Shown piece by piece: positions 1-31,352 of a DNA stretch of 32,174 nt. Every line of letters starts with the position of its first letter. The stretch's first letter is position 1. The stretch comes from Candidatus Anstonellaceae archaeon (lineage in GTDB: Archaea; Micrarchaeota; Micrarchaeia; Anstonellales; Anstonellaceae). The notes under the pieces are model-generated. The model made no database searches, had not been told where the DNA came from, and saw nothing but the letters and a program-made list of their open reading frames with translations. The stretch is taken from positions 1 to 32,174 of the forward strand of contig JBKBMW010000002.1 in assembly GCA_046295675.1 (NCBI GenBank). Reading direction: 5' to 3'. The position numbers and the translations under genes are program-made.

Positions 1-528
1 GAAAAAGATAACGTATTAAAAGAGAAGTTAGAAAAGAAAAAAGAGGAATTAATAGAGACAGAAAAACAAAACCTATTAAGAGAGGAAGCTAAAGCAAAAT
101 GGGAAGAAATTCCCTCTGATGAGAAAAAAAAGCAAATTGATGAGGTATTAAACAACCAAGAAATTAAAAACGCAATTATAGATAAATATAAAAAAGAGCA
201 AGTTTTTCCACAAGCAGAAAATGAAGTAATAGAAGCTAAATTAAGGGAAGAAAATTTCCCATTAGATAAATTCTATAAGATTGTTTATAGGAATGTAAGT
301 GAGGATAATTTAACAGAAAGTTTAAATTCAGCCTTAAATTCCATGCTGGCTGAAGCAGTGCTTCCAACACTTGGTTCCTATCTTACAGGAAAATTGGGAC
401 TTGGTCTTGTTTTTAGTAATCCGAAATGGGAAGATTATATAAACGGAGTTTTTTCCAATCCAGAAACATCATTGAGTAACACTATACAACAGTGGCAACA
501 AACAACTAAAATGACCCAAAGTAGGTGA
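1..528 (+). CDS. 3' part of a larger ORF whose 5' end lies outside the window. A Lys/Glu-rich, probably coiled-coil segment is followed by a Gly/Leu-rich hydrophobic stretch (VLPTLGSYLTGKLGLGLVF). Hypothetical protein and first visible gene of the membrane-protein gene train.
   Basis: My hand translation shows frame +1 open from base 1 (EKDNVLKEKLEKKKEELIET...) straight into the listed 343..528 ORF. TGA stop at 526-528. Only 12 nt separate it from the next same-strand gene. Confidence 0.6.
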   Translation, partial: EKDNVLKEKLEKKKEELIETEKQNLLREEAKAKWEEIPSDEKKKQIDEVLNNQEIKNAIIDKYKKEQVFPQAENEVIEAKLREENFPLDKFYKIVYRNVSEDNLTESLNSALNSMLAEAVLPTLGSYLTGKLGLGLVFSNPKWEDYINGVFSNPETSLSNTIQQWQQTTKMTQSR

Positions 529-540
529 CAAGGTGTTTAA

Positions 541-1098
541 ATGAAAGATTTTAGCAAATTTTATCAAGCTTTGGAAAAGAAAGATAATCATCTAATTAAG
601 TTTTTATTAGAAAACTACAAAAAAGAAAATTCTTCTAGATTGGAAACATGGAAAAATATTACTGTTAAGAGCCTTTCTTCATTTCAAGGTTATTTTTTTA
701 TAAAAAATCAAGGTTTATTTTTATATGGAAAAATAGTTCCAGAAATTTTTTTTGTTTTTCTTTCAATAAATCACATCCTTGAGCAAACTCTCAAAAATTT
801 AACTTCTAATTCCAAACTTGTCAAAGAAAACATAAAAAATCTAGAAAATTTAGAGTCTAGATTTGAAAAACTTTCTTTAAAATTTAGTGTTTATTATCAG
901 ACAATGAGTGCAGTGGTAGGGGCATATCATTTCTATAAAAAAAACCTTTCTTTAACTATCCATTTTTTAGATAGATTGGAAAAACAATTTAATCTAAAAA
1001 AACTAGACTTGCTTTCCATTTCAGAATTAAATTCTATTTCTATAAGATTAACCAAGCTAGCTGAGGAATACCTACAAAAAGCAAATAAAAATCAATAG
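541..1098 (+). CDS. Hypothetical 185-aa protein, mostly helical and Lys/Leu/Asn-rich, with one hydrophobic segment (GLFLYGKIVPEIFFVFLSINHIL). No family recognised.
   Basis: ATG ORF with the SD-like AAGGTG 5 nt upstream (530-535). 8-nt gap to the next gene. Long open frame in an AT-rich, stop-rich background. Confidence 0.75.
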   Translation: MKDFSKFYQALEKKDNHLIKFLLENYKKENSSRLETWKNITVKSLSSFQGYFFIKNQGLFLYGKIVPEIFFVFLSINHILEQTLKNLTSNSKLVKENIKNLENLESRFEKLSLKFSVYYQTMSAVVGAYHFYKKNLSLTIHFLDRLEKQFNLKKLDLLSISELNSISIRLTKLAEEYLQKANKNQ

Positions 1099-1106
1099 GT
1101 TTCTCT

Positions 1107-2309
1107 ATGGTGGAATTATTAACCCAATATTTTTATGTAGGAACTGCTTTAAGCTCTTTAATTGTTGCATTGACTTATATGATTGGCTCTTTGTTTTCTT
1201 CAGAGCCTTTAAAAGGCTGGGCAAGAAAGGAAATAGCTGATTTGCTTTTTATTGTTCCACTCTTTTATATTCTTGTCTTTTTTTTATCTAATTTTTCTTC
1301 TGATGACCAAATAAATATAGTATCTAACTCATTTGGGCCAGAAAGTTTTTTTTATAAGGATCTAACCAACTTTTCCACTCAACTTATTACAAATGTTTTT
1401 TATTTTTCTGCAGTTTCATCTTACAATTATAATTATCAAGTTGGTTTGTCTGTCTCGGATTTAGTACCAATATCAATCCCACAATGGTTTAATTTTGGTG
1501 GAGGATTATCCTCATCTCAATATCCTGGTTATGGTTCTAATATAATTTTAAACCAACTTTTCTTTGGGATAGATTACTGTTTTAATATACTATTTCTTCT
1601 TAATTCAATCTTCCTAATTTTTAGTTTTTTAGTTCTTATATCAATAAATTTTCTTCTTCCTTTAGGCATTTTTCTTAGAGTTTTTCCATTTACAAAAAAA
1701 GCAGGTGGATTTATTGTGGGCTATTGTTTAGCAGTTTTATTTGTGTTTCCTTTTGCAGCCCAATTGAGTGCAGGCCTATCCTCTTTGGTTTTAGAAAAAG
1801 CTAAAAAAGATGGTTTTATTTCTTCAATTCCAAATTTGGAATACTCTGATAGACCACCTATAAAAAATTTGAATGCTGAACTTATTAGGAATTACATTTT
1901 GAGTCCTTTTTACATTATCCCTACTTCTGTAATTGCTAATGCCATTGCTTCTTTACTTGCTTTTATTGGAGTACCGCCAGGTTTTTCTATTGACAACTTT
2001 TTTCAATTACTTGTTAGTGCAAGCACTCCAATTGCCCAAATAATTCAATATATTATTAATTTAGTCAAAAAGATAATTCCAATTGCTATTGGAGGAACAT
2101 ATCCTAAATATGCAAAATCCACAGCTGATATTATAAAAAGTTATTATAAGCCTATAGTCACAAATATTTTACCAACCTTAAGTTTATACTTTTTAGTAAT
2201 TCTTCTTTCTGTTATTTTTCAACTTACTCTTACAATAGTTTTAGGGAGAAATCTATCTAATTTCTTTGGCCAAGAAGGCCAGCTCTATGCACTTTACAAA
2301 ATTCTCTAA
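1107..2309 (+). CDS. Paralog P1 of a six-member polytopic membrane protein family. This is the minimal 400-aa version with no signal peptide; it starts directly at TM1.
   Basis: Contains all three family blocks: YMIGSLFSSEPLKGWARKEIADL, LPLGIFLRVFPFTKKAGGFIVGYCLAVLFVFPF, and a C-terminal TM plus tail FFGQEGQLYALYKIL. About 5 hydrophobic helices. Confidence 0.85.
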   Translation: MVELLTQYFYVGTALSSLIVALTYMIGSLFSSEPLKGWARKEIADLLFIVPLFYILVFFLSNFSSDDQINIVSNSFGPESFFYKDLTNFSTQLITNVFYFSAVSSYNYNYQVGLSVSDLVPISIPQWFNFGGGLSSSQYPGYGSNIILNQLFFGIDYCFNILFLLNSIFLIFSFLVLISINFLLPLGIFLRVFPFTKKAGGFIVGYCLAVLFVFPFAAQLSAGLSSLVLEKAKKDGFISSIPNLEYSDRPPIKNLNAELIRNYILSPFYIIPTSVIANAIASLLAFIGVPPGFSIDNFFQLLVSASTPIAQIIQYIINLVKKIIPIAIGGTYPKYAKSTADIIKSYYKPIVTNILPTLSLYFLVILLSVIFQLTLTIVLGRNLSNFFGQEGQLYALYKIL

Positions 2310-2319
2310 GGTCGAGATA

Positions 2320-3279
2320 ATGCTAAAAAATTTATTATTTTTGATTTTGTTTGCATGCATTCTTTATAGTCAATCCACTCAAAATTATGGCCCAGTGCAA
2401 TGTTTTTCTTTTTCTTTGGATGAATTGTTTAATCCAGAAGCTCAAAAATCATTTAATCTTCCTATTGTTTTTTCAATAATGATTTCTTTAGTGGTTTTGT
2501 CCTATTTTTTTGGCAATCTACTCAAAAATCCTCATCTACTTGTTTGGGCAAAAACCGAAGGAGTTAATGTTTTTTGGTCAGGGGTTTTGCTTATCTCTAT
2601 TAGTGGAGCAATTACTTTTTCTTGTACAATTGCAACCTTTTTTGTCCCAGACTTAAAAACTTCTCCGCTTTCTTATTTATCGAATTATTTAAACAATATA
2701 TTCTCATTAGGAAAAAGCTATTCAATAGATCTTTTAAAAAGTTCATTTAATGATATGTTTTCTTCTATGGAACTAAATTCACCATCTTCTATTTATTTTG
2801 GAACTTCACAATTTGGAATTTATTATCTGGCAGGAAAAAAAGAATGGGCATCATATAAAGAAACTCTTAACTCTTATTTAGTTCCAATTTTAGGAATGAT
2901 TTATGCTCAAAAATTCATAATTGAAAATTTATTTTCTCTTATAGTGCAGATAGTTCTACCAACTTCTCTATTTATAAGAATCATCCCAATTTTTAGAGAT
3001 GTAGGAGACTTTTTAATAGCAGTGTGCCTTTCAATCTATTTCTTTCTGCCAATAATCTATTTTGCCACATTTTCTTCTGTTACCAATACCTTTGGCTCGT
3101 TTTCTCCTGATGCTCTTAATTCTGTTGTTTATCTTTATGATTCTACTATAGAAAATGCTTTAACTTTTATTGCCTTTCTTACTATACTGGCAGTGTTTAT
3201 TCCAAATTTGATTTTGGTAGTGATAACCGCCTCCTCCATGGCTTTATATAAAGCTATAAAAGGATTTTTCAGTGGGTGA
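2320..3279 (+). CDS. Paralog P2 of the membrane family (about 319 aa from ATG 2320), with an N-terminal signal-like peptide MLKNLLFLILFACILYSQ.
   Basis: The track ORF 2266..3279 begins at a TTG inside P1. ATG 2320 lies 10 nt after the P1 stop and yields a signal peptide like those of P3-P6. Family blocks: YFFGNLLKNPHLLVWAKTEGVNV and LPTSLFIRIIPIFRDVGDFLIAVCLSIYFFLPI. Short tail AIKGFFSG. Confidence 0.8.
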   Translation: MLKNLLFLILFACILYSQSTQNYGPVQCFSFSLDELFNPEAQKSFNLPIVFSIMISLVVLSYFFGNLLKNPHLLVWAKTEGVNVFWSGVLLISISGAITFSCTIATFFVPDLKTSPLSYLSNYLNNIFSLGKSYSIDLLKSSFNDMFSSMELNSPSSIYFGTSQFGIYYLAGKKEWASYKETLNSYLVPILGMIYAQKFIIENLFSLIVQIVLPTSLFIRIIPIFRDVGDFLIAVCLSIYFFLPIIYFATFSSVTNTFGSFSPDALNSVVYLYDSTIENALTFIAFLTILAVFIPNLILVVITASSMALYKAIKGFFSG

Positions 3280-6200
3280 TTGGATTTGAAAAAATTAATT
3301 CTTTTAATAATTTTTTTTGGTTTATTAAATTCGCAAACAACAAAACAAAACGATATTACTAAACTTGTCGAATTTACTAAGGACCAACTCCTAAATAACC
3401 CCCCCACCTTAATTTCTTCTATTCTTAATAATTATTCTACTTTGTTGATTTTGCTTTTTGCTTTAGCTGTTTTCATTTTAGCAATTGGTTATTTTGGGGC
3501 TTCTTTTTTTGATTTAACTGAAACCAAGGTGTTTATTAAAACAGAAATCGGTCAATTAATTTTAACTGCCATATTTGCAGGTTCTTTATTTGGAATAATA
3601 ATTTTTGTAGATAGACTTATAATTTCAAGTGCAGATTTTTTGGTTTCACCATGCGGGGAAAATTATGTTTATGCTCAAAACATTCCAATACCTATTCAAT
3701 ATGCAAATTGTTATCTAGATTCTTTAATCAAATTGGCTGACAAGGCATTGGAAGAAAATATAAAAGAATCAATAGAAGCTGGGAGGGAGACCTATAAACA
3801 AGTAGGTTATCAAGTTTCTGTTTCTCCTCTTTCAGGTTATTATTCCTTCAGACCTGCTGCATTTAAAAGGTTAGATGTGGAGATAAAAACTGCAGAGTCA
3901 CATTTTTTATCCTCTTTCTTAATCAGCCTAATATCTCAAAAAGCCTTTTTGAATTATATAGCACCAGTCTTTGGAATATTTTTATTATTTATTGGTTTAT
4001 TATTTAGAATTTTGTTTTTTACAAGAAAGCTTGGGGGTTTATTAATAGCAGCAGGTTTTGGTTTGCTTTTGATCTGGCCTCTAACCTACATGATCTCCTG
4101 GTTTACCTTTCGAGCAGGAATATTTGGTTCTCAAAACTTAGGAGAAGAAAGTGCTTTTTGTCCCAAAGAATGCCAAATCCCAGTTCCTGTTGCTTACAAT
4201 TTTTTAGCTAATCCAAAAGGAGAGTACAAACCAGAGACTATGCTTACTCTTGAGGAAGTAGCAGCAATTTTAAAAGAAAAACCAGAGAATAAAAATCAAT
4301 TTGAATTTTTAATTGAAAAGGGAATTCAGCCTTGTTTTGTTACTGATAGTGATAAAACTAAAAAATTTGGAATAATTAGTGTAAATGATTCAGAAAATTG
4401 TGATGAATCTTGCAGAGAAATTCCTTTAAATCTTCAAGTTTGCAAGGAACAAGAAAAACATTGCGATGCTCTTCCATTAGCCTGTAAAATAATCAGGTCT
4501 ATGGGACTGGAAAACTATACCTCATATTATCAAAAAAATTCTCAATATTGCTCTAACAAAAGTGTTTGTTCCAATTGCCCAGATTCTTGTAAATACCAAT
4601 TAAGGGAAATTCGTTATTCTTCTGATCCTTCCTTTATTCCAAAAGATCCAACCGGTGTTGGGATCATTCCCAGAACAGATTTAAAAAATACTATAAATTG
4701 TAGTTCCAAATGTGAAAAATGCCCTCCAGTTTGTAGATATTATTCCAAAAAAAACGATGGAACTTTTTTCTTTTTAAATAAGGATAGTGCAGAGTGTAAA
4801 AATTGTGATGATTGTTTTAACTATAAAGAACCTTCCACCCAACTCCCTATTTGTATGACTTATGTTCCTTTGATTTCAGTAGGAAACTGCCAACAGCTTT
4901 GTGGAATACCTTACTCTATAAGAAATGCCCCAAATAACAATATCTGCCCAATTGATTGCAGAATATATTTTGATAGCACTACTGATAAATATAAAGACCC
5001 AGTTTTTAGTTCTTTTTGTGAAAAAAATGGTGAATTTTTTGAAGCTTGCAACCGCTGTCCTATAGAGTGCAAAATAAATGCATCTGAAGTAATAAATCAA
5101 ATAGCAAAACAACAAAATCCCTCTTGCTCTCTCCCCCCTACTTTTTCTAATGGTCAGATGGATAATTCAATAAATAAGAATTGTGCAAGATGTGACCCAT
5201 CCTGTAGATTTTCAAATCCTTCTTCTATTGCATCTGCTCAAATTAAGAGCAGCTCAGGAGTTGATATAAACAATATAGAAAGTTATATTCCTATTTTTTC
5301 TGAATTTTATGCAAAAACTTTTGTTCAACAAAACTGTAGTTATAGTTCATCACCTTATGTTGAGTGTCCTACAGAGAGGAATGGTAATATATACACTGAT
5401 TGTAACTGGAAAGAAGGATCAGATTCATCTAAAACACTTCCAACCTATTCTCCAGCTAAGATAATTTATCCAACTACAGGGGATAATCCATTCTGCCCGG
5501 ATTTTATTGCCAAATTGCAAAATTTTGTTTTATTATCGTCTGATGAAAACAACCACATTATTGTAAAAGCAAATCAGTACCTTTCACATCTTTGTACTTT
5601 AGATAAAGATAGTGAAAAGTTTTGTTCTTCGCCTTATTGTCCTTCATCCTGCTATTATAACTCCTGGCCAAATTTTGCAGCTTTAGAAAATATCTCAAAT
5701 ATCACTTCAAAAATAAATTTTGCTCTGTCCAATTGCAATTTTAATGAAACACAAAAAGGCTGCTATTATTACAATTATCTCAATATGGTAGTTTTGAATT
5801 ATTCTGGACAATATTACTTGCCCAAATCAGCTGTTCAAAGCTGTTTCCCTTCTATTTCTTCAATAAGCTCTGATCTTTCTAACTTTGCCTGTTATCCAAT
5901 TTTAAAAATTCCTTCTGCTTCAGACTTTTCTTATTGTGGTAATTATATTGATTATTCAAATCCTAACAGGTCCATGATAAAAGGCTCAGCATGCCCATAT
6001 GAATGCAGATATGATGAATTAAAGAAGCAAAAAAATCCACAAATATGTGGTGATTTTACTCTCTCATTTACTTCTTCCAATCCCTCTCATAATTGTGAGC
6101 CATTCTGTAATGGTTTAATTAGATCATCAGATCTATCCTATTGCAACTCAGAAGCATATTCATGTACCCAACAACAAGCTCAAACCTATTGGGTAAGAAT

Positions 6201-7338
6201 TAATTCCATTCCAATCAATAAATCCCATAGCAACCGATTATGTAATCAATCTGTAGTTTTATATAATTCATCAATCACTTATAAAAAAGGAGATCTAGAT
6301 CGAAATAATCAACCATATGCTAAAGATTGGTGGGAAGACAGCTGTACCTATATAGAAAACGGTGAAACCAAATATATAAACTTCACTTTGGTAAGTGGCT
6401 ATTCTCCCTACCTTTGTTCTGCTGGGCATAAATATATAGGATTGGATGAACTAATTTCTTCTAGTGGTTATTCTCAATATAGAGAATGCGGCGAGATTGA
6501 TACTAACAAAAATCCTAACTATATTTTTTGCGGAAATTATAGTATAAATGTTGGGGGAACAAAAGCAGTTATAAAAGCATTAGATGATTTATGTTATGCT
6601 TCCTACAATGCTAGGGCAATGCCTGGATTAGCTTATCATTCTATTGGAGGAAACGGAGATTTCTCAACTAAAGTTAATGGTCAAATAAAGCAAAATATTC
6701 AATACTTTGATAATTGTCAACAATGCCCAGTGGTATTTAGAATCAAAAATTTGCAAGATGCTTATCTTTTGGGAATTCCTGGGATATTAACAAATCTTCT
6801 TAATTGTCAAAAGTGCAATATAAAAATAAACCCTCCCTATTCGTCTTCTTGTGAATTCAAATACGAGAAAGCCATTGGTTGCCCATTAAGATGCAGAATT
6901 GCAACTTTAGATGGAAGTCTTCCTTATGGCTGTGATCCAGATATAGATGATCAAAAAGAAAAAAGTTATGTTAATCCAGAAGTCGGATATGCTTGCGATG
7001 ATTATCATGCTTTAAGTTGCAGGATAAATTTAAGGGAGGATTTATGTGATGGTTGCAGTGAATTTTGTGAATCAGATTGTCAATCACTTCCTTATATAAG
7101 AAGAGATTGTTCTAGCTGTAATCCTGCTGCAAGTTTTGGTGCAAATTCCTTATTAGATGCTACTACCTCTCAAGCAGGTCTTGTTACCCAACCAGGTTGG
7201 ATAAGAATTGGCTTATTACTAATACCTTCTATAATTTTACCTTCATTTTCAATAGTAATTTTAGTATCATTTATAAAAGGTCTATCTCAATTCTTAGGAG
7301 GCGATATAGAAATACCTGGTTTGTATAAGTTGATTTAG
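3280..7338 (+). CDS. Paralog P3 (1352 aa). The family core carries a ~1000-aa cysteine-rich extracytoplasmic insertion between the fourth and the last TM helix.
   Basis: No ATG is available, so the start is TTG at 3280 (as in the track) or TTG at 3286, which sits 6 nt after GGTGA (3275-3279). Signal-like N-terminus (MDL)KKLILLIIFFGLLNSQ. Blocks: YFGASFFDLTETKVFIKTEIGQL and FIGLLFRILFFTRKLGGLLIAAGFGLLLIWPL. C-terminal TM plus tail LSQFLGGDIEIPGLYKLI. About 76 Cys by hand count. Confidence 0.85.
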   Translation: MDLKKLILLIIFFGLLNSQTTKQNDITKLVEFTKDQLLNNPPTLISSILNNYSTLLILLFALAVFILAIGYFGASFFDLTETKVFIKTEIGQLILTAIFAGSLFGIIIFVDRLIISSADFLVSPCGENYVYAQNIPIPIQYANCYLDSLIKLADKALEENIKESIEAGRETYKQVGYQVSVSPLSGYYSFRPAAFKRLDVEIKTAESHFLSSFLISLISQKAFLNYIAPVFGIFLLFIGLLFRILFFTRKLGGLLIAAGFGLLLIWPLTYMISWFTFRAGIFGSQNLGEESAFCPKECQIPVPVAYNFLANPKGEYKPETMLTLEEVAAILKEKPENKNQFEFLIEKGIQPCFVTDSDKTKKFGIISVNDSENCDESCREIPLNLQVCKEQEKHCDALPLACKIIRSMGLENYTSYYQKNSQYCSNKSVCSNCPDSCKYQLREIRYSSDPSFIPKDPTGVGIIPRTDLKNTINCSSKCEKCPPVCRYYSKKNDGTFFFLNKDSAECKNCDDCFNYKEPSTQLPICMTYVPLISVGNCQQLCGIPYSIRNAPNNNICPIDCRIYFDSTTDKYKDPVFSSFCEKNGEFFEACNRCPIECKINASEVINQIAKQQNPSCSLPPTFSNGQMDNSINKNCARCDPSCRFSNPSSIASAQIKSSSGVDINNIESYIPIFSEFYAKTFVQQNCSYSSSPYVECPTERNGNIYTDCNWKEGSDSSKTLPTYSPAKIIYPTTGDNPFCPDFIAKLQNFVLLSSDENNHIIVKANQYLSHLCTLDKDSEKFCSSPYCPSSCYYNSWPNFAALENISNITSKINFALSNCNFNETQKGCYYYNYLNMVVLNYSGQYYLPKSAVQSCFPSISSISSDLSNFACYPILKIPSASDFSYCGNYIDYSNPNRSMIKGSACPYECRYDELKKQKNPQICGDFTLSFTSSNPSHNCEPFCNGLIRSSDLSYCNSEAYSCTQQQAQTYWVRINSIPINKSHSNRLCNQSVVLYNSSITYKKGDLDRNNQPYAKDWWEDSCTYIENGETKYINFTLVSGYSPYLCSAGHKYIGLDELISSSGYSQYRECGEIDTNKNPNYIFCGNYSINVGGTKAVIKALDDLCYASYNARAMPGLAYHSIGGNGDFSTKVNGQIKQNIQYFDNCQQCPVVFRIKNLQDAYLLGIPGILTNLLNCQKCNIKINPPYSSSCEFKYEKAIGCPLRCRIATLDGSLPYGCDPDIDDQKEKSYVNPEVGYACDDYHALSCRINLREDLCDGCSEFCESDCQSLPYIRRDCSSCNPAASFGANSLLDATTSQAGLVTQPGWIRIGLLLIPSIILPSFSIVILVSFIKGLSQFLGGDIEIPGLYKLI

Positions 7339-8463: not shown

Positions 8464-8464
8464 T

Positions 8465-11400
8465 ATGAATAAATGGTTTTTATTATTTGCATTCTTTTGG
8501 ATCGGACTGCTATTCTCTCAGTTTCCTCCACCACCTCCAAATGTACTTTTTGAAGTTTATGATAGCCCAGTGATTGACCCTTCTAATCCTCCTCAAAGAA
8601 CTACTGAAATCACAAAATTAAAACCATTTTTTCCATATTTAATCTTAGACTGTCCTCTTTATAATGAGGGTGAGAGTGATTGTATTTTTACTATCAATTT
8701 AGTCAATTTTACTTGCCACTATCCAGATCCTGATGGTATTCCTATTGATACTGTTCATACCCTGACTTTTGCTAATCCAATTGTAGTTGCAAACGGAGAG
8801 AGAGTTTTTTTTTCTTTTGACCCTTCTAATCCCTCTAATCCCCTTTATTCTTTTTGGATAACGCATCCCTCCCCTATTCCTCCTAACACCAAGTCTGCAG
8901 CTGTTTGTTCTAGCAAAAAATATGCAAATTTTTCTTATATAATAGAGGCAAGAAGAGCTGGATTGCCAAGCTCTATTTTTGAAAAATCCAATTTAGTTAA
9001 TATATTTCATCACCCTCCAGAAATAAGCTTTCCCTTTACATCCACCCCTCTTTGTAATTTAAAATTTTCTGTAAGTGATTTGGATGAGAGTTATGGTAAT
9101 AGCGTTTATATAAAAATTACATTATCAAATTCCACAAATAGTTGCAACTTTATATACAATCCAGGAAGTGGTATAGGTTACTTCCCACCCAAAGAGAAAG
9201 ATAATTGCGATCCTTTTGAGTTTTCTGCCCGTGAAATGGTTTTGAATCCTTCTCCTCCACCTATAAATACAACCTTTATTTTACATCTAAAGGCAACTTA
9301 CTCTCCTTATAATATTACTGTATTCCCTCACAATAGCTATAGTTATACTCTAAATAATTATAAAAAATATTTTATGGTTAATGGCCCTCCATATGAACTA
9401 ATCAATTTTTTTTGCAATAGGGTAAGCAAAAACTATGACCTTTTTGGTTCAGCACATGTTTTTTCAAATAAAATAGAAATTGAAGCAAATGCAACTACTT
9501 CTAGGATAAACTTTAATAATCACTTTTTTAAAAATCTAACAATAGAAGTCTTGAATGACCAAGGTAGCACTATAAATAGTTATAATTTTTCCTGGGTATG
9601 TGATAGTGGTGTATGTAGCTCTGCTCAATTTGATTATTCAACAAATGCTAGGAATTTAATAATAGACCAAAAGACATTTACTCCAATCCAAAATTCTTTT
9701 AATAGCACTCTTACTTTAGACACCTCTCGACTCTGTCCACAAGGGGATAAAAATAAGCTTAAAATAAAATTATTTGGTTATGGGTTTGATTGGGAGAATA
9801 AAGAATTGTTATTATATAACGGAAAGTGTGCTGGAACCCCGCATTTGGACGCAGTTATTTATTCATCACCCTCACAAAAAGGTGATATAATAGTACTATC
9901 TGATTTTACTCAAAGAGAAGATAATTTCAAATATATTATTGTTGAGCTAAAACAGCTAACAAATATTCAAAAACCACCAACTTTAGAAATAAAATACAAA
10001 ACCCATAATGATGCAATTGTTCGTTCAAAGGTTTCATCGATATCTTCTGCTAAATCTATTAAAATTTCTTATGATATAAATTGGATAAATGTCAGTATAA
10101 TCTCACCAAATGTACCTGTAATATATAAAGAATTTACTTTTCCTCTACCTCCCCCAATTGAAGTATTAGAGAGATGGAAAATAGATGACCAATTAATAAA
10201 TGAGGAACAAAAAGATGATATACTTAAAAATAAGCGTATTTATGTAGGAGAGAAAGATAAAGCTTTGGTAAATTTAGTGTTTAAAGTACCATATAATATA
10301 GACGGATATAATTTTGATCAATATTTATCTCCATATTTAGAAGGTGATTGTAGTTCTAGCTCAGTTAAATCAGGAAACGAGTATTTTGTCAATATTGATC
10401 TAAAAAAAGGTGCCTGCATATATAAAATAAGGGGAAAGTCACAAACACAACAAAATCAAAACCCATCTTTAAGTAAATTTTTAACTTATATAATATATTC
10501 TAAGAACTTTTTTGTCCCAAATAAGCCACAATCCTTTTGTGATTCCACACAACTTTTAAGCAGTACTTACTATAAGTTCTTTGCTGTTGCTCTTGCCTCT
10601 TTGATCCTAATAATTGGAATTGGATACATGGTTGGTTCTTTTCTCTCCCATCCTGCTTTGCTTGAATGGTCAAAAAGAGAAATTTTAGAGGTAATTTTGT
10701 TAGGAATTTTCATTTCTTTAGTTCCACAATTTTTATTATTTTCTTGTTCTGAAAAAATATCTATAGGTTCATTTCTTAACCTATTTCCATTAAAAAATAC
10801 AGTAGTTGAAAAAGGAGCCTCCTTATTAGAATTTGTTCAAAAAATTATGTTAGATTTAATAGAAAGGTCACACACTGTCATAACTATTTTAAGAAGAGAT
10901 ATATCCTATTTTCAAATACTTGCCTCTTATTATCATTTTAATTCGAGTTTCGTATCTGACATTGTTAGTTTTCTTGGTGTTGGTTTTAGCACAGGTTTTA
11001 ATGAAAATCCTTATTCAGGTTTATATCTACAAATATCTGTATTTAACTTTTTATTGCAACTAAATAACGCCTATTTATTTAGTGCCTTAACACATTACTT
11101 TATTCTTTTCTTTTTATCTTCTTCTACAGGAATGATTGTTCTTTTGTTTCCATTTGGATTTTTGTTTAGGTGTTTACCTTTTATAAAAAATGTTGGTTCT
11201 GTTCTTATTGCAATAGGTCTTGGATTTTATATCTTATTTCCAGCAGCTTATGTAATATATGGATTAATACTTTCTAACGATCATTTCAAGTATTCAACTT
11301 TCTGTGCTATTTTTCCACAAGATTCTCATTGCCAAGATTGTAATATTTATCAACTCTCTTTTTCGGAAAATCCAAAGTGCAATCTTATTTATACTAATGG

Positions 11401-11722
11401 TTGGGAAGATTTCAAAGACAAGAAATTGAATTATCAAAAAGATTTAGAAGAAGTTGGTAGTTTTTCAAAAAATACTTTTCCAGATCAAGACTCAATAACA
11501 AAAATTCAAAAAAATAAAGCATCATTGCAACCAGTATATCCATTATCACAAGATAGTTTTGATCCAGATTTAACAAAATACTTTAGTTTAACTGCTCTTA
11601 ATTTTATTTTAGTCCTGTTTATCCCATCTGTGATATTACTAATTACACTTTCATTTGTTAGAGATATTGCCTCGATTTTGGGAGGTGACATTGATGTCTC
11701 AAGGCTTATGTATCTGGCTTAA
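8465..11722 (+). CDS. Paralog P5 (1085 aa). A signal peptide and a ~690-aa Pro-rich, beta-strand-like ectodomain are fused in front of the family core.
   Basis: ATG lies 1 nt after the P4 stop. N-terminus MNKWFLLFAFFWIGLLFSQFPPPPP. The core starts near nt 10570. Blocks: YMVGSFLSHPALLEWSKREILEV and FPFGFLFRCLPFIKNVGSVLIAIGLGFYILFPA. Tail IASILGGDIDVSRLMYLA. Confidence 0.85.
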   Translation: MNKWFLLFAFFWIGLLFSQFPPPPPNVLFEVYDSPVIDPSNPPQRTTEITKLKPFFPYLILDCPLYNEGESDCIFTINLVNFTCHYPDPDGIPIDTVHTLTFANPIVVANGERVFFSFDPSNPSNPLYSFWITHPSPIPPNTKSAAVCSSKKYANFSYIIEARRAGLPSSIFEKSNLVNIFHHPPEISFPFTSTPLCNLKFSVSDLDESYGNSVYIKITLSNSTNSCNFIYNPGSGIGYFPPKEKDNCDPFEFSAREMVLNPSPPPINTTFILHLKATYSPYNITVFPHNSYSYTLNNYKKYFMVNGPPYELINFFCNRVSKNYDLFGSAHVFSNKIEIEANATTSRINFNNHFFKNLTIEVLNDQGSTINSYNFSWVCDSGVCSSAQFDYSTNARNLIIDQKTFTPIQNSFNSTLTLDTSRLCPQGDKNKLKIKLFGYGFDWENKELLLYNGKCAGTPHLDAVIYSSPSQKGDIIVLSDFTQREDNFKYIIVELKQLTNIQKPPTLEIKYKTHNDAIVRSKVSSISSAKSIKISYDINWINVSIISPNVPVIYKEFTFPLPPPIEVLERWKIDDQLINEEQKDDILKNKRIYVGEKDKALVNLVFKVPYNIDGYNFDQYLSPYLEGDCSSSSVKSGNEYFVNIDLKKGACIYKIRGKSQTQQNQNPSLSKFLTYIIYSKNFFVPNKPQSFCDSTQLLSSTYYKFFAVALASLILIIGIGYMVGSFLSHPALLEWSKREILEVILLGIFISLVPQFLLFSCSEKISIGSFLNLFPLKNTVVEKGASLLEFVQKIMLDLIERSHTVITILRRDISYFQILASYYHFNSSFVSDIVSFLGVGFSTGFNENPYSGLYLQISVFNFLLQLNNAYLFSALTHYFILFFLSSSTGMIVLLFPFGFLFRCLPFIKNVGSVLIAIGLGFYILFPAAYVIYGLILSNDHFKYSTFCAIFPQDSHCQDCNIYQLSFSENPKCNLIYTNGWEDFKDKKLNYQKDLEEVGSFSKNTFPDQDSITKIQKNKASLQPVYPLSQDSFDPDLTKYFSLTALNFILVLFIPSVILLITLSFVRDIASILGGDIDVSRLMYLA
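11681..11688 (+). promoter_or_regulatory. Shine-Dalgarno GGAGGTGA for P6, embedded in the P5 coding sequence.
   Basis: Complementary to the conserved archaeal 16S 3' end. 5-nt spacing to ATG 11694. The same bases encode the Gly-Gly-Asp of the P5 tail. Confidence 0.6.
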
Positions 11723-12824
11723 AAAATCTTATTTGTTTTTATTTTTTGCATTGTTATTTTCTATGGTCTTTTCCCAAGATTGGGGAAGTGCAAAAAGTGC
11801 AAATATTCAACCTACAGATTTTAAGTTATTTAATATTCCTTGGAAATCTACCTCAAATCAAGAAATTTCTTGGTTGAGCATTGCTTCAATAGTTATCTTA
11901 ATTTGTTTTTTAGCAAATACGATCTTATTTATGCTTGGAAAAGCATTTGAGTTAGATAATATAAAAAAATTTGCTATTTCAGAATTTTTTCAAACCACTG
12001 CTACAGCACTTATGATTGTTTTTTTTCTCTCTGGTATCACAGCTGCTTTTGATTTAATTCAAAAATATTTTCTCCCTTCTGGTTCATCTGTTTCTTGCAA
12101 TGGAAACATCATCGGTATTTGGGATAATAATTCTGGACCATTTACAATTATCAAATGTAAAATTTCAGAATATCTTTCTACTGCTTACTCCCTATTTAAT
12201 GCTACTTATATTGCTAATATTGATAAAGAAGTTGAAGGTTCGCAGTGTTATGGAACTTCTGGATTTACTGAATGCAAAATCTGGAATTCAGATCTTTATA
12301 GAGAAGTTGAAACTTATCACTATATTGCAAACAGGTTGACAAATGTTTCTATCTCTTTAGTTGCCCAGTATTTCTTTATAGATTATTTGCAAAATAATCT
12401 TTTATCTTTCTTTTTACCTGTTGGCCTGTTGCTTAGACTTTTTCCTCCTTTAAGAGGAATTGGAAGTTTGTTTATTGCTATAGTTATTGGTTTTTATTTT
12501 ATTTTTCCATTAACCTATCTTTTTATAGAACCTTCTATTAAAATAGAAGAACAAAAAGTCCAGAAGCCAAACTTAGCAAAAAATGTTTGTTTTTCAAAAT
12601 TTAGCCCTTTTGTTTCCACTTCACTTTTGCAACCAGAACCTCCATCTACTACTGGTTTACAATTCTCTTCAGATATAGGGCAGTTCATTGTAGAAATTAC
12701 ATTAGGCACATTTTTTTATCCATTCCTTTCTCTTGTAATAACTGTCATCTTTATAAATTTCTTAGCAGGATTTTTATCAGCAGACAGTGGTATGTTGATT
12801 CATTTCATAGCAAAGAATCTATGA
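11694..12824 (+). CDS. Paralog P6 of the membrane family (about 376 aa from ATG 11694).
   Basis: The track ORF starts at TTG 11655. ATG 11694 is preceded by the strong SD GGAGGTGA (11681-11688) and gives the signal-like MSQGLCIWLKKSYLFLFFALLFSMVFSQ. It overlaps the P5 3' end by 29 nt. Blocks: FMLGKAFELDNIKKFAISEFFQT and LPVGLLLRLFPPLRGIGSLFIAIVIGFYFIFPL. Tail LAGFLSADSGMLIHFIAKNL. Confidence 0.8.
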   Translation: MSQGLCIWLKKSYLFLFFALLFSMVFSQDWGSAKSANIQPTDFKLFNIPWKSTSNQEISWLSIASIVILICFLANTILFMLGKAFELDNIKKFAISEFFQTTATALMIVFFLSGITAAFDLIQKYFLPSGSSVSCNGNIIGIWDNNSGPFTIIKCKISEYLSTAYSLFNATYIANIDKEVEGSQCYGTSGFTECKIWNSDLYREVETYHYIANRLTNVSISLVAQYFFIDYLQNNLLSFFLPVGLLLRLFPPLRGIGSLFIAIVIGFYFIFPLTYLFIEPSIKIEEQKVQKPNLAKNVCFSKFSPFVSTSLLQPEPPSTTGLQFSSDIGQFIVEITLGTFFYPFLSLVITVIFINFLAGFLSADSGMLIHFIAKNL

Positions 12825-12834
12825 GTTGGGGGAT

Positions 12835-15800
12835 ATGAGAGTTTTATTTATAATTCTATTATCATTTGCTTTATTTTTTTTGGTTGGTTGTACTCTCAAT
12901 CCAAATAAAAATATTGTTAGTGGAGGTTGTTGCTATCAATCAGATACATTTTATACTTGCGAAAAATCATCAAATCCAGTAGCAAACACTCAAGATCTTT
13001 ATTCTTTAACAAATTGCGGAGTTTATAAATCAAAGGAATGTAGTTTTTTTAATTCTACTTCAGGGGAAATTTTAGATGCAAATAAAGATGTAATAAAAGA
13101 TGATGATGGTAATCCAATCCAACCAAATATGTGCTCTAAAAACTGCAATTTTGATAAAGCAAATTGTACAAATCAAGATGAGAAAAACACTTGTTACTCT
13201 CTAACTAATCCAAAAACAACTTACCCTATTTGTGTAAATAATTCTATAGTTTTATGTATTCAAAATCAATGTAAGGTATGGATGTGTGGTGAAAAAAAAC
13301 CAACAGTAAAAAGAGAGTACTCTTTTTCAACATCAGACCAAGAAACTTTAAAAAATAATTATAAATCTCAAAGTGGAAAAAAAACAATCTTTGATGTTCA
13401 ACGCGGTTTAGTTGGAAAAATATGTGAATTTAGATTTATGAATGCTTCCTCCTACAGGTTGCTTAGTGAACAAAAGTGGCTTGTCAATAGTATACGCCTT
13501 GGCATCCTTGGTTCATTTTCAGATTATGAAATTGCAAAATACTATTTTCCACCTTCAGATGCTTTTTGTAGCTCTGCATTTAACAAAAACGCAGTAGTAG
13601 AGAGCTTTATAAGGTATCTTATTTATTCTCCATCTACTTCTTCTTTTTCTCCTATTACAAAAGATTCATTTTGTTTTGATGATGGTACAAACTATATATG
13701 CAAAAATGATCCATCTATTGCCTTTCCAAAATCTGCTGAATTCTCTCATTTACTTTGCACTTCTTTTTGTTCAAGGTTGTTTAGCTGCCCATTAAGGAAT
13801 TTAAATTTTGCTACTGTTGATGTTTCCCCGCCCTCTACCTCTCAAACAAATCCAATAATTCATTACTTTTTAAATATATCCTCTTACTATTCCAATCTCC
13901 TTAAACTTTATCCAGATACCCAAAATTATTATAGAAAAGAAGGAGAAAAAGGAATAGGTCCAGAAGGTGCAAAAGCTTTTGAATGCATTTCTGATTCTGA
14001 TTGTTTTTCTAATACTTGCAGAAAGGATGTGTACTTTCGAGGCAGATGTTTTGATAACTCAAATAATGCTGTTGATTGTAATTGCACTTTAGTAAGTTCT
14101 TGTTCAGAAGCTTTTAAATGTGATAAATTCCCTCAAGATTCAATAGATGAGGCAGAGTGTAAAGCAGGCAAATTTTTATGTGAGCAAAATTCAATTAACG
14201 ATGAATTAATAGTTATGTGTAAATACTCTCCAACCACTTATGACCTTTATGCTTATGCTGATTTGGATAAATTATACCTCTATAAATTAGGTCAAAGTAA
14301 TGCTGTTTCTGTAATAGGACCAAATAGTTGGGATGGGACTTGGGGGGTTTATGATTTTTCAGAGTTTAATAAATATAAACATATGGAAGATGGCAATAAA
14401 CAACAGCTGGAATTTTCCAATATTGTAAGAAAAGTCGTGGAATTTGGTTGCCTAAACACTGACAAAAAAATAATAGAACAACCAAAATGTAATCCAGGTT
14501 ACTCCTTTAGCCCAATTAAAAAAACCTGTTTAGACTCAAATGGAAAGACCTCTTCTCCTTTTTGCACCAGTCCTTCACAAGGGCCACAAGAATGGGTGGT
14601 TTGGAAGGATAATGCTGAACACCTTTGGTATAAAATTAATGAGAAGACTTCTCAAGATAAAAAAAATGATGTTATCCGCTGGCAATGGGGCTATACATTT
14701 TTTGTAGTTCCAACCAATTTTGTAGTTTCTTCCACTCTGTCTTCTGCATCAAACAAGCAACTTTATATTATAACCTCCAGAAGTGTTTCCTTCAATGATT
14801 TGAAAAGAAAATTTTCATTTATTGACAAATGTGATTTAACTCATACTAACAAAATAGATGAGTTTGGAGGAGATTATGATATACTTGAAATCTCTATCAA
14901 AGATATTCCTTTACAAAAGCATTATTTAATAGAGCAATATATTACTCCTTTAACTTCTCACCCATATCTATTAGCAGGTGGAAACAAATTAGATTTTGGA
15001 GAGCAAGAAAAAAAAGCCCAATACTTATTTGATAAAACATGGATAATAAAAAGTTTTGGAAAATGCCAAAAAGATAATGATGATTTGCTTAAAACAAAAT
15101 CTTATGGTTTATGTAATAGCTGTGGAACCTTCCTCACTCTTGCTTATCAAAATGTAAGCAAAACCCAAACATCCTATTGTCCAAAAGATTGCGGTTTATC
15201 TGGGTCTCTTCTCTGTTTCTGTCCCTCCTCCCTTTATAATTTTTTTAACACAAAAACAATTGCTGGAGGGATGGCTGGAATCTCAGGTAATGTTTTTCTT
15301 CCAAATATCACCAATGCCTCTCCATCTACTATCCCTGAATTTTCTTATTTAATAAATAAAATCCATGCTTATCTAGAAAATAATGTGATTCCTGTTCTAG
15401 ATTTAAAAGAATATGCAAAAGATGGAATCTCTGTAGGAGGGAAAGAACAGGTTAGTTTTGATTATTCTAATCAGTTTTTAATGGCACCTCATTGTGAACA
15501 AAAAAAATACGATTGTACTTGTACCAGATACTCTGATTCAGATGGTTCTTGTATAGAGGGAAATTGTAGTTGCGATATTGCTCTTCCTCCAGATGCTTTG
15601 TTTTTATTTTTAAACAAAGATCACAGCCCAGTACTCTCTATTTTGGATACTCTTTCTTCCTCTACTGCCCAATCTAAAATAAATAATGCCAAATCGCTTT
15701 GTCCAAATTGCCAAGTAGGTCTGGAATATGAAAATATTCTTAATATCGATTCTGCAACTAATATAACAGAGTTTTATCAGTCTTCAGGACTAAATTCTAC

Positions 15801-16842
15801 TATAAAAGCATTTTTTGGAGTAGAACTTCAAGCACAAGAAAATTTAGGTTATCCTCCTCCCTCTCCCAATCCAGAATTAATTAATAACAAAAAAGTAGAT
15901 TTTTTGGTCTTAAATATCAAGTTCAGTGAGCAAAACAAAGACAATTACATAAAGGCAATTGAAAATGCTTACCAACTTTCAAAATATGTTTTATACCATG
16001 TAGGAAAACCAACCTTATGGAAACTAAGATTTGATGGGAAATTTGTTGATAGTCCTTATTCTAACCCTGTATTTTTAGATACTTTATTTGTTTCTCAACA
16101 AAATCTCACTCTTTCAGGAGTAGTTGGGATTTTACTTCCTTCCTTATTAGAAAAGCCAGAAAATGTTTTAGAAAACTTAGAAGTAGATAAGCAGGGGGAT
16201 AGTCAAAGCCAGTCATTTTGTTCTTTAGTAAATGGATCTTTAAATATATTACAACTTTCTTTTTACAACGAAGTAAAAAAACTTCAAGCACAAGATCAAG
16301 CTTGCAACCAGGCGGCATGTTCAGAGTGTTCTCCTTTAATTAAAGACGATCCAGAGGTATGTAATCCAAAATGTTTAGATGGAACTGCTTGTAGCAATGG
16401 TTTTAAGTGTTTACAAAACTGTATATCAAAAACTTACTGTCAAGCAAATAAATGCGAAGATAAATTTAATAATAAAAAAATCACCTGTTATTATATGCCT
16501 TCAAGTTCAAAATATTTTACTTATCTAAACAAACTAAATATTAATACTTTAGAGGAACTATTTGGAAATCCAGATATGCCTGAGATTATAGCTTCATTAA
16601 ATGAACCATGCTGTCTAAACATAACTACTGAAAGGTCTGAAAGTTATTATACCTATATTTCATCTATTGGAATTGATTATAGCTCTTCTAATGCTATTTA
16701 TCCATTTTTTGGTTCTAATGATACCAATTGCGGGCAATTTGAGCAACCTCAAGAGCAAGACCCATTAACCTGTAGTCCAACTGATTTACCAAGCTATACC
16801 CTTTCTAAGAAACTATACTATTGTTTTTGGGAAAATAAATAG
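12835..16842 (+). CDS. P7: giant (about 1335 aa) cysteine-rich secreted or lipid-anchored protein. It lacks the P1-P6 core and is the last gene of the train.
   Basis: ATG 12835 is in frame with track start TTG 12826. N-terminus MRVLFIILLSFALFFLVGC has a hydrophobic h-region ending in a lipobox-like LVGC. I see no further TM helix. About 69 Cys by hand count, with dense clusters such as ACNQAACSECSPLIKDDPEVCNPKCLDGTACSNGFKCLQNCISKTYCQANKC. Many N-x-S/T sequons. Confidence 0.8.
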   Translation: MRVLFIILLSFALFFLVGCTLNPNKNIVSGGCCYQSDTFYTCEKSSNPVANTQDLYSLTNCGVYKSKECSFFNSTSGEILDANKDVIKDDDGNPIQPNMCSKNCNFDKANCTNQDEKNTCYSLTNPKTTYPICVNNSIVLCIQNQCKVWMCGEKKPTVKREYSFSTSDQETLKNNYKSQSGKKTIFDVQRGLVGKICEFRFMNASSYRLLSEQKWLVNSIRLGILGSFSDYEIAKYYFPPSDAFCSSAFNKNAVVESFIRYLIYSPSTSSFSPITKDSFCFDDGTNYICKNDPSIAFPKSAEFSHLLCTSFCSRLFSCPLRNLNFATVDVSPPSTSQTNPIIHYFLNISSYYSNLLKLYPDTQNYYRKEGEKGIGPEGAKAFECISDSDCFSNTCRKDVYFRGRCFDNSNNAVDCNCTLVSSCSEAFKCDKFPQDSIDEAECKAGKFLCEQNSINDELIVMCKYSPTTYDLYAYADLDKLYLYKLGQSNAVSVIGPNSWDGTWGVYDFSEFNKYKHMEDGNKQQLEFSNIVRKVVEFGCLNTDKKIIEQPKCNPGYSFSPIKKTCLDSNGKTSSPFCTSPSQGPQEWVVWKDNAEHLWYKINEKTSQDKKNDVIRWQWGYTFFVVPTNFVVSSTLSSASNKQLYIITSRSVSFNDLKRKFSFIDKCDLTHTNKIDEFGGDYDILEISIKDIPLQKHYLIEQYITPLTSHPYLLAGGNKLDFGEQEKKAQYLFDKTWIIKSFGKCQKDNDDLLKTKSYGLCNSCGTFLTLAYQNVSKTQTSYCPKDCGLSGSLLCFCPSSLYNFFNTKTIAGGMAGISGNVFLPNITNASPSTIPEFSYLINKIHAYLENNVIPVLDLKEYAKDGISVGGKEQVSFDYSNQFLMAPHCEQKKYDCTCTRYSDSDGSCIEGNCSCDIALPPDALFLFLNKDHSPVLSILDTLSSSTAQSKINNAKSLCPNCQVGLEYENILNIDSATNITEFYQSSGLNSTIKAFFGVELQAQENLGYPPPSPNPELINNKKVDFLVLNIKFSEQNKDNYIKAIENAYQLSKYVLYHVGKPTLWKLRFDGKFVDSPYSNPVFLDTLFVSQQNLTLSGVVGILLPSLLEKPENVLENLEVDKQGDSQSQSFCSLVNGSLNILQLSFYNEVKKLQAQDQACNQAACSECSPLIKDDPEVCNPKCLDGTACSNGFKCLQNCISKTYCQANKCEDKFNNKKITCYYMPSSSKYFTYLNKLNINTLEELFGNPDMPEIIASLNEPCCLNITTERSESYYTYISSIGIDYSSSNAIYPFFGSNDTNCGQFEQPQEQDPLTCSPTDLPSYTLSKKLYYCFWENK

Positions 16843-16914
16843 TTTTATTTAAAAGCTTATTTCTCTAAAATATTTTTATACATCATCTATTTGTTCATTA
16901 AAAAGGTGGAGCAT

Positions 16915-17160
16915 ATGGCAGAGAAAAATTTAAAGGAGATCCTAGAGCTTATGGATTTTTTAATAGGAGATAATTCTTTGCCAAGAAATATCAGAAAAAC
17001 AATTCAGGAATCAAAAGAAATCCTTCTTTCAGAGCAGGATTTTCAAACTAAAGTCTCAGCAACAATACAAACACTTATTGGAGCATCAGAAGATGTTAAT
17101 CTTCCAATGCATGCTCGCACTTATATTTGGGATATTCTAACCAAATTAGAAGCATTATAA
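16915..17160 (+). CDS. UPF0147-family small helical archaeal protein (about 81 aa).
   Basis: The motif GDNSLPRNIRKTIQESKEIL matches the conserved D-x-S-[VL]-P-R-N-I-R core I recall for archaeal UPF0147 proteins. ATG 16915 is preceded by GGTGGAG (16905-16911). The track start at TTG 16891 is probably too long. Confidence 0.65.
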   Translation: MAEKNLKEILELMDFLIGDNSLPRNIRKTIQESKEILLSEQDFQTKVSATIQTLIGASEDVNLPMHARTYIWDILTKLEAL

Positions 17161-17197
17161 TTTTTTTATAATTCTTTTTTATTTTGATACTAATTAA

Positions 17198-17205
17198 TTT
17201 ATATT
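17198..17205 (+). promoter_or_regulatory. Candidate TATA box (TTTATATT) for the polD operon, leaderless-type spacing.
   Basis: The box starts 33 nt before the DP1 ATG (17231), and there is no SD in between. Archaeal TATA boxes sit about 26 nt upstream of the transcription start. Confidence 0.3.
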
Positions 17206-17230
17206 TTAACTTCTTATTTTATTTGATAAT

Positions 17231-22218: not shown

Positions 22219-22229
22219 AAGGTGTTAAA

Positions 22230-31344: not shown

Positions 31345-31352
31345 TTTATCCC

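Follow-up and report, generated by a model that had tools for sequence, protein, structure and literature searches.

By what physical means DPANN archaea draw on their hosts has long been asked: tomography has revealed bridges, tubes and a barrel complex, and almost no genes have been tied to any of them. The question is raised by a 32,174-nucleotide stretch of DNA, hereafter the window, from a Candidatus Anstonellaceae archaeon (Micrarchaeota; GenBank assembly GCA_046295675.1, contig JBKBMW010000002.1, positions 1 to 32,174 of the forward strand). The organism is a reduced DPANN archaeon; a first-pass annotation, made from the sequence alone, had surmised a reduced archaeal genome. About half of the window (bases 1-16842) is a single co-directional run of nine plus-strand genes, which encode six paralogous membrane proteins and their presumed partners. 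What does this train do? Here we describe the protein family to which the six paralogs belong, its recurrence across the Micrarchaeota and its association, in some lineages, with an ATPase. Our favoured interpretation, held at somewhat less than even confidence, is that the train encodes a cell-envelope contact or translocation apparatus, found so far only in Micrarchaeota as judged by a scan with two peptide patterns.

The train is tightly packed. In order, its gaps are +12, +8, +10, 0, 0, +1, -29 and +10 nt, and the layout of open reading frames (ORFs) thus confirms the nine plus-strand genes, spaced by -29 to +12 nt, of the first-pass annotation; GGTG-like motifs precede several of the internal starts. 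The six paralogs, designated P1 to P6 (these and all other features of the train lie on the plus strand), are P1 (1107..2309, 400 aa), P2 (2320..3279, 319 aa; its ORF opens at 2266, and the ATG at 2320 was chosen as matching the homologues), P3 (3280..7338, 1352 aa, 76 Cys), P4 (7339..8463, 374 aa, a nearly bare core), P5 (8465..11722, 1085 aa) and P6 (11694..12824, 376 aa), which overlaps P5 by 29 nt. Pairwise BLASTP among them gave E = 1e-8 to 1e-3, and the alignment reveals motifs in common; judged from sequence, the paralogy is weak but real. A hidden Markov model (HMM) of the family picks out exactly these six proteins among the ORFs of the window.

The shared core has a simple plan. Its N-terminal half consists of a signal peptide ending F[AS]Q, helix 1, a short K..E loop, helix 2 and a loop of ~100 aa. 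In the C-terminal half, helices 3 and 4 are joined by the signature LLPxGxFLRxxPFT[KR]KxGxxLIAxxxxFYFxFP (8032..8124 in P4, where, with x for the P of PFT, it forms the Lys/Arg-rich, predicted cytoplasmic hairpin between the two helices), and are followed by a variable loop, a last helix and a terminal LGxD(I/V)(D/E)....L..L. Two details of the earlier reading are corrected here, in that P1 has no signal peptide while the other five paralogs have one, and the terminal motif is missing only from P2, P6 carrying a variant tail (...SADSGMLIHFIAKNL). Among 40 diverse family members, G247 and P262 are invariant and E65, G234, L237, R238, R244 and G362 are at least 90% conserved. In the same 40 proteins, the helix 1-2 loop contains 15.9% K+R and the helix 3-4 hairpin 22.5%, and both are therefore assigned to the cytoplasm; the 2-3 and 4-5 loops, being long and acidic and containing Cys, are assigned to the outside. 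The mature family protein is thus predicted to cross the membrane with five helices, from an outer N-terminus to an inner C-terminus. Within the Anstonellaceae, to which the identities given below for P3 and P5 also refer, the last helix and the C-terminal tail are the most conserved parts (68-87% identity). Of the six positions, P6 is among the best conserved.

An AlphaFold2 model of P4, built on a 40-sequence alignment, reached a mean predicted local distance difference test (pLDDT) score of 88.8 and a predicted template modelling (pTM) score of 0.84. Its helices are very long, the longest having 53 residues, and short helices with one beta-hairpin form an outer cap. At E <= 1e-3 the model had no PDB match in Foldseek, the top entries being lyases and BAR domains with template modelling (TM) scores below 0.2; BFVD returned no fold match, and neither the family profiles nor P3, P5 and P7, the last gene product of the train, matched any PDB sequence. 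The core fold is a confident prediction that matches nothing solved.

The family proved to be large. A word-indexed search recovered very few homologues of these membrane proteins, which are of low complexity (2, 5 and 6 matches), and the family came to light when HMMER was run exhaustively against 1.84 billion cluster representatives (50% identity), with 2592 proteins at E <= 1e-3, 1591 at <= 1e-10 and 66 at <= 1e-30. The members that carry names are all from Micrarchaeota (Anstonellaceae/Anstonellales, Ca. Gugararchaeum, Micrarchaeia and others). In a scan of one genome per GTDB species, 39 loci were found, 36 of them titled Micrarchaeota or a sublineage, two "uncultured archaeon" and one Marsarchaeota. 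The scan used a narrow P6 alignment and two specific peptide patterns, and because of that specificity absence from other phyla, or from the cultured ARM-1, A_DKE and Mia14, is not established by it. The locus labelled Candidatus Marsarchaeota (L049; JAMCYP010000009.1) has a six-gene set of the Micrarchaeota kind, and its ATPase shares 84% identity with the one in the Micrarchaeota metagenome-assembled genome (MAG) L035, so that the bin is probably mislabelled or contaminated.

Own ORF calling combined with the family HMM identified 29 loci in which exactly six family genes stand consecutively on one strand, with a median intergenic gap of -1 nt and 90% of the gaps at or below 30 nt. The best matches between these loci fall at the equal train position in 70% of cases, against 17% expected by chance, with identities that drop to 20-25%. 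By this measure each of the six positions is an orthologue group of its own in a frozen gene order, and the recurrence of the train in dozens of genomes puts the arrangement far beyond chance. A six-member paralog set that keeps its order in every Micrarchaeota lineage sampled is a rare case. The first-pass annotation had read the adjacency and fixed order of the six as a sign of a stoichiometric hetero-oligomer; the position-specific orthology in the 29 complete, Micrarchaeota-labelled loci is what such an assembly predicts, and the synteny on which that proposal depended is conserved in related genomes. The nearest relatives, a Micrarchaeota MAG (L001) and an Anstonellaceae MAG (L002/L005), possess all nine genes in unchanged order.

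Clustering divided the six-gene sets into three groups, namely type A (that of the window, with giant partners), type B and type C (ATPase-linked). Two complete, divergent sets, one A and one B, occur in single genomes, as L013+L029 (on the same 920-kb contig), L021+L038 and L014+L008, giving 12 paralogs per ~1-Mb genome. After type B sets in five loci (L041:17362-17928, L047:11954-12574, L029, L046 and L048) lies a gene for a ~190-aa membrane-anchored PLD-family protein, which matches Pfam PLDc_2 and, below threshold, NCBIfam NucT and DrmC; a nuclease at the surface and a phospholipase are both conceivable identities.

Is the train energised? The first-pass annotation had placed any ATPase upstream of base 1. 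The relatives show otherwise: upstream of the train in L001 and L005 there is a gap of ~550 bp, then a divergent class-V aminotransferase, followed by NMD3, DUF2070 and DHH genes, and the train of the two closest relatives itself starts with a ~500-aa membrane protein. An ATPase of the VirB4/HerA/FtsK class that had been anticipated does adjoin paralogous sets in another Micrarchaeota clade, but downstream and not upstream. In L035 and L049, the six paralogs are followed directly by two membrane proteins, each of ~275 aa and two helices, and then by an ATPase of ~500 aa, which has Pfam matches to HerA/DUF87, AAA_10 and the TraG P-loop. Its NCBIfam matches, to CedD (1e-19), CedB (8e-18) and VirB4-like models, are all sub-threshold, and those to CedD and CedB span the P-loop domain only and fall far short of the curated cut-offs (70 vs 600 bits).

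A metagenome scan with this ATPase yielded at least 150 relatives of 52-82% identity, in a conserved module (for example L035:10560-17714, L057:8348-15437 and L091:9084-15338). The order is two paralogous ~275-aa two-helix membrane proteins, the ATPase and a ~100-aa protein, then further genes for a ~135-aa Zn-ribbon protein, a ~240-aa coiled-coil/winged-helix protein and a ~780-900-aa membrane protein. The ATPase operon itself appears to be undescribed. Named members of the ATPase cluster are all Micrarchaeota, some bearing the IMG label "type IV secretory pathway VirB4 component". In the clade of at least 60% identity, family genes lie directly upstream of the ATPase on the same strand in 13 of the 20 informative loci, with all six present in 10 of these 13, and two more loci have family genes one or two genes off. 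In the 52-59% clade only one of 27 informative loci is linked, namely L085, which is a type B set; the short contig L127 contains one partial family ORF. The link to the ATPase is solid for the family and indirect for the type A set of the window.

The large ectodomains and the lipoprotein partner described in the first-pass annotation are present. From the alignment, P3 consists of the core plus a Cys-rich insert of ~1000 aa (4150..7179) in the extracellular helix 4-5 loop, and this insert is conserved like the core (52% vs 56-58% identity). The insert carries six copies of a motif, C-x2-C-(P)-x2-3-C-[KR], at 4567-5199 and 7045-7077 of the window (residues 430-640 and 1256-1266). The motif, which was matched to no known metal-binding or disulfide motif, also occurs 2-11 times in the enlarged position-3 proteins of L013, L033, L014, L018 and L020; across loci the size of the position-3 protein ranges from 385 to 1352 aa. 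The ectodomain of P5, ~670 aa, sits between the signal peptide and helix 1 and evolves about twice as fast as the core that follows it (27-28% vs 51-52% identity).

P7 (12835..16842, 1335 aa, 69 Cys) is the second Cys-rich giant of the train, P3 and P7 having Cys contents of 5.2-5.6%. It is predicted to be a lipoprotein from its lipobox, LVGC at residues 16-19, which fits [LVI][ASTVI][GAS]C after a signal peptide. We assign it to a "class A" of partners (1100-1570 aa, 4-6% Cys), homologues of which immediately follow 13 of the 29 six-gene sets. An equivalent xGC motif occurs in most of the 19 listed class A proteins, and a Cys-Cys pair ~12 residues past the lipobox cysteine (12880-12930 in P7) is invariant in nearly all. 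No Pfam domain or PDB sequence match was found in 16 class A members. The AlphaFold model of P7, built on only six sequences, is poor (pLDDT 44.6 overall), with local values of 50-80 in the stretch 15337..16134. For this low-confidence stretch the top Foldseek entries were TIM barrels of families GH1, GH53 and GH5 (E = 6.6e-4 to 0.03, TM ~0.28); 16 P7 homologues showed no conserved catalytic Glu pair of clan GH-A and no Pfam match. A (beta/alpha)-barrel-like fold resembling that clan, at borderline scores, is possible but a weak lead only.

At the other end of the train, the window opens within a gene whose 3' end (P0, 1..528) encodes, in translation, a Lys/Glu-rich C-terminal 175 aa. The first-pass annotation described this tail correctly as Lys/Glu-rich, but it is actually the C-terminus of a ~500-aa protein that has a single membrane helix as well as a signal peptide and an ectodomain. 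Complete orthologues in L001 and L002 (502-503 aa) have a ~150-aa ectodomain after the signal peptide, then a membrane helix at about residues 170-190 and finally a long C-terminal part, and their N-terminal region is homologous to "class B" proteins of 900-1990 aa beside other six-gene sets. The class B layout is a signal peptide, an ectodomain of 150-200 aa, one helix and a low-Cys C-terminal part of 300-1800 aa; no Pfam domains were found in six members. Class A lipoproteins and class B proteins flank the type A sets. Between P0 and P1, H185 (541..1098) is a 185-aa helical protein with one hydrophobic helix at residues 58-76. In L001 and L002 an orthologue (26-31% identity) occupies the equivalent place; H185 has no counterpart in the other loci examined and no family match, and is an accessory confined to the close relatives.

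Some type A sets have a further kind of neighbour. Directly upstream of the one in L016, four genes (L016:1-4086) resemble Suf iron-sulphur assembly genes by inspection of the N-terminal sequences; one encodes a class-V aminotransferase and another an ABC-type ATPase (GPNGAGKS), while two are ORFs without assignment. A class-V aminotransferase (faint Pfam match) also lies upstream, in divergent orientation, in L001:1-492 and L005:4684-6090. Such neighbours may be a coincidence or a link to the Cys-rich partners.

How might these components work together? The six orthologue groups have kept a frozen order over deep divergence and therefore probably form an obligate hetero-oligomer of fixed stoichiometry. 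Within the cytoplasmic membrane, one copy each of P1 to P6 would most likely make up a ring or platform that is hetero-hexameric (pseudo-sixfold). The outer loops of the paralogs, the P3 insert, the P5 ectodomain, P7 and the P0 ectodomain would build an outer structure in the 20-25 nm under the S-layer, and the Lys/Arg-rich hairpin, together with the last helix and its LGxD...L..L tail, would be the likely cytoplasmic docking surface for a partner. In other Micrarchaeota, paralogous sets are co-directional and contiguous with an ATPase of the HerA/VirB4/CedB class and its two small membrane proteins, and we therefore infer that the family provides the channel or platform of a machine. This could be an ATP-assisted contact and translocation machine for exchange with the host, its cargo being DNA or other host-derived material. 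The type A set of the window would be the version with giant surface partners, and the ATPase to which it would couple, if one is used, would be encoded elsewhere in the genome.

Several observations weigh against such a machine. No pilin-like or other secretion component was recognised. No ATPase was found in the window, upstream in the relatives or next to any type A set, of which 15 were examined. Sets linked to the ATPase cluster apart from these by similarity (type C, and one of type B), so that the coupling proposed for type A would follow by paralogy only, and the ATPase module stands without family genes beside it in 26 of the 27 informative loci of the wider clade. Moreover, the location of the cluster among housekeeping genes and its universal presence in the sampled genomes would suit a basic envelope role equally well. 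A bolder version, which we consider unlikely, would have the six paralogs, the Cys-rich lipoprotein, the bitopic giants and the ATPase module constitute a new class of archaeal envelope nanomachine, with a pseudo-sixfold hetero-hexameric channel unrelated to VirB6 in sequence and fold, that forms the symbiont-side docking barrel of strain ARM-1 and carries out the exchange of DNA, lipids or proteins that Micrarchaeota rely on.

That barrel is one of several described structures and systems to which the cluster can be compared. In the Micrarchaeon Microcaldus variisymbioticus ARM-1, cryo-tomography revealed a 21-nm barrel beneath the S-layer at nanotube contacts with the host (PMC11329633); its authors also consider a barrel made of host proteins (PMC11329633). 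The Micrarchaeota pseudoperiplasm is 20-25 nm wide (bioRxiv 10.1101/2021.04.28.441871), which ectodomains of 700-1300 aa could span, and the barrel belongs to the same phylum and spans the envelope at the host interface. The sixfold symmetry of the S-layer may be listed as a further likeness to a six-paralog cluster. The barrel is a structure without genes tied to it, and the cluster is an obvious candidate for it.

Other comparisons concern secretion and DNA transfer. The Ced and Ted DNA-import systems of Crenarchaeota (CedA, A1, A2, B, D, E; PMC9905601, PMC11868833) are also archaeal and chromosomal and combine a multi-helix membrane protein with a HerA/VirB4-like ATPase. They lack giant surface partners and six-fold paralogy, and in the present case no NCBIfam model covers P1-P6 and no CedA1/TedC-like pilin was found. 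Neither an ATPase of the CedB/CedD/TedB type nor a CedA1/TedC pilin is present in the window, the NCBIfam CedB and CedD models being unmatched by the nine proteins. The SPEARE proteins of Nanohaloarchaeota are giant membrane-anchored proteins with a cytoplasmic VirB4/TraG-like ATPase domain, for which host-directed secretion has been proposed (PMC10266531). They likewise associate giant surface proteins of a DPANN lineage with a VirB4-class ATPase, and class B proteins share their layout of ectodomain, one helix and long C-terminal part. The class A and B proteins, however, have neither ATPase nor Ig-like Pfam domains, the Micrarchaeota ATPase is a separate protein of ~500 aa, and nothing like the six-paralog core has been described for nanohaloarchaea.

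Ordinary identities for the train were also examined and rejected. The known Micrarchaeota S-layer protein has a PF05123 domain and almost no Cys or other sulphur-containing residues (bioRxiv 10.1101/2021.04.28.441871); P3, P5 and P7 have no S-layer Pfam match, and the Cys-rich P3 and P7 have the wrong composition. An ABC or other ATP-driven transporter is contradicted by the lack, in all nine proteins, of a Walker A motif ([AG]x4GK[ST]) and of any Pfam or NCBIfam transporter match. Indeed, none of the nine matched any Pfam or NCBIfam model significantly, and the statement in the first-pass annotation that no family could be recognised holds. There was no Pfam match to a type IV pilus or archaellum platform (PilC/FlaJ, T2SSF), and the signal peptides, which end F[AS]Q and lead directly into an ectodomain or helix 1, are not of the prepilin type. 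Nor is the train an anti-phage defence system or mobile element: PADLOC gave zero matches and PHROGs a single insignificant one (E = 0.009), no integrase and no atypical composition were seen (guanine-plus-cytosine (GC) content is ~30% throughout the window, uniform at 28-33%, so that the train is native in composition), and the flanks are housekeeping genes.

Rickettsiales type IV loci, the analogy drawn in the first-pass annotation, contain tandem enlarged paralogs of VirB6, a protein with its N-terminus out, five helices and its C-terminus in, whose helices 2 and 3 are joined by a large outer loop. The gross topology predicted for P1-P6 agrees with this. Indeed, the proteins share with VirB6/TrbL, CedA/CedE and TedA a polytopic build of about five helices, N out and C in, with a large outer loop and room for big extensions, CedE being reported to have five transmembrane helices (PMC11868833). 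Such pore proteins are unrecognisable by sequence (PMC9905601; PMC11868833), CedA and TedA being only 13% identical (PMC9905601), and it is conceivable, if improbable, that P1-P6 are extremely diverged homologues of VirB6/CedA/TedA in a domesticated type IV or Ced-like system of DNA import or export, in which the VirB6 pore multiplied into six. The VirB4/CedB/CedD-like ATPase, operonic with the paralogous sets of one Micrarchaeota clade, speaks for such a descent, as do the two small membrane proteins before it, comparable in position to VirB3 and VirB8, and the NucT-like, nuclease-type PLD protein that follows the five type B sets. TrwI/VirB6 (7o3v_F) had the top query-normalised TM score (0.23) among the 50 Foldseek hits listed for P4, but several shorter targets equal or exceed it in the target-normalised score, and the match itself is not significant (rank 26, E = 0.3, TM 0.23/0.29, root-mean-square deviation 16 A). 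No Pfam model of any kind matched P1-P6 at E <= 1, and in the 40 diverse members no Pfam family recurred, TrbL/VirB6 being unmatched even at E <= 10. Aligned by hhalign to A. tumefaciens VirB6, a sequence 100% identical to Ti-plasmid records, the 40-sequence family profile scored a probability of 0.3% (E = 0.2 over 25 columns), with a single-sequence template of limited sensitivity. Homology to VirB6 is thus not borne out. Further differences are that no VirB2/CedA1-like pilin, relaxase or coupling protein was recognised, that the ATPase falls far under every curated cut-off and adjoins no type A set, and that neither the giant Cys-rich lipoprotein nor the bitopic giant has a type IV counterpart. 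Six distinct retained paralogs contrast with the homo-pentamer of VirB6, a hetero-set of six being without precedent in type IV systems. Functionally, a VirB6/CedA/TedA pore with a VirB4/CedB ATPase is the nearest analogy. The window system would be best described as resembling type IV and Ced systems in topology and ATPase partnership only.

The remaining alternatives dispense with translocation, with host contact or with the complex itself. The paralogs could be a passive structural or adhesive scaffold that anchors the ectodomains and the lipoprotein, for cohesion of the S-layer and pseudoperiplasm or for adhesion to the host, the adjacency of an ATPase being incidental. We regard this as a minority possibility: the train contains no ATPase, transporter or enzyme signature, type A sets have no ATPase beside them, most of the coding mass is ectodomain, and the cluster is universal in the sampled genomes amid housekeeping surroundings. 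The P3 insert is also conserved as a structural element would be, and the P5 ectodomain evolves fast, like a surface-exposed recognition module. An anchor, however, would not need its most conserved parts to be cytoplasmic, as the hairpin and the C-terminal tail are, and six distinct conserved subunits make a costly one; the ATPase is a repeated neighbour, at 13 of 20 loci in one clade and once more in L085, and the known S-layer protein of the phylum is a different, Cys-poor protein with PF05123. A housekeeping role in envelope biogenesis or scavenging without host contact, such as maturation of lipoproteins or the S-layer, uptake of lipids, or a scaffold for cell shape or division, would fit a chromosomal cluster of native GC (28-33%) that is present in every sampled lineage, often as two sets per genome, and is syntenic with PolD and UPF0147 in close relatives. 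It would also fit the conserved lipoprotein partner and the PLD-family protein near some sets, which could act on lipids. We nonetheless judge it improbable, since a basic function would hardly be expected to be confined to one phylum, with other archaea doing without it, since ectodomain sizes vary greatly (385-1352 aa at position 3, for example), and since no similarity to known biogenesis factors was found. Least probable by far is that the six are independent receptors or transporters that do not assemble together, or part of a mobile or viral island. Duplication often produces tandem arrays without any complex, but birth-and-death turnover would then be expected, instead of a copy number of six, an order and a position-specific orthology that stay fixed across deep divergence in genes that overlap or abut; a mobile or viral origin is contradicted by the PHROG and PADLOC results, the lack of an integrase and the native GC.

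The cluster supplies a defined gene set, so far from Micrarchaeota only, as candidates for host contact, with products predicted to span the membrane and the pseudoperiplasm. We regard it as a strong candidate for machinery that joins Micrarchaeota symbionts to their hosts. Its cost is ~16 kb in genomes of ~1 Mb, and the candidates can be followed in three cultured Micrarchaeota. Whatever its role, the core represents a new, large protein family, of 2592 representatives, with a predicted fold unlike any solved; a literature search found no paper describing the six-paralog cluster.

The co-directional run extends beyond 16842 into housekeeping genes. Right after P7 on the same strand, at 16891-23078, lie genes for UPF0147, the small and large subunits of DNA polymerase D (PolD) and a HAD hydrolase, and in L002, a relative from the Anstonellaceae, the cluster is followed by genes in this order too, which is not so in Micrarchaeota that are more distant. 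Besides both PolD subunits, the downstream part of the window encodes GlmS, a glycogen-debranching enzyme, PTH2 and NurA; scans of the window for tRNA and Rfam families gave no match. The NurA nuclease gene (28977-30017) has no adjacent HerA, and beside it on the minus strand (30031-31356) is a gene for an extremely Lys/Glu-rich protein of 441 aa with no Pfam match. At 25650-26438, also on the minus strand, a lone TIM-barrel gene has a modest match to indole-3-glycerol-phosphate synthase (E = 5e-14); no other tryptophan genes are near it, which is odd for a reduced genome.

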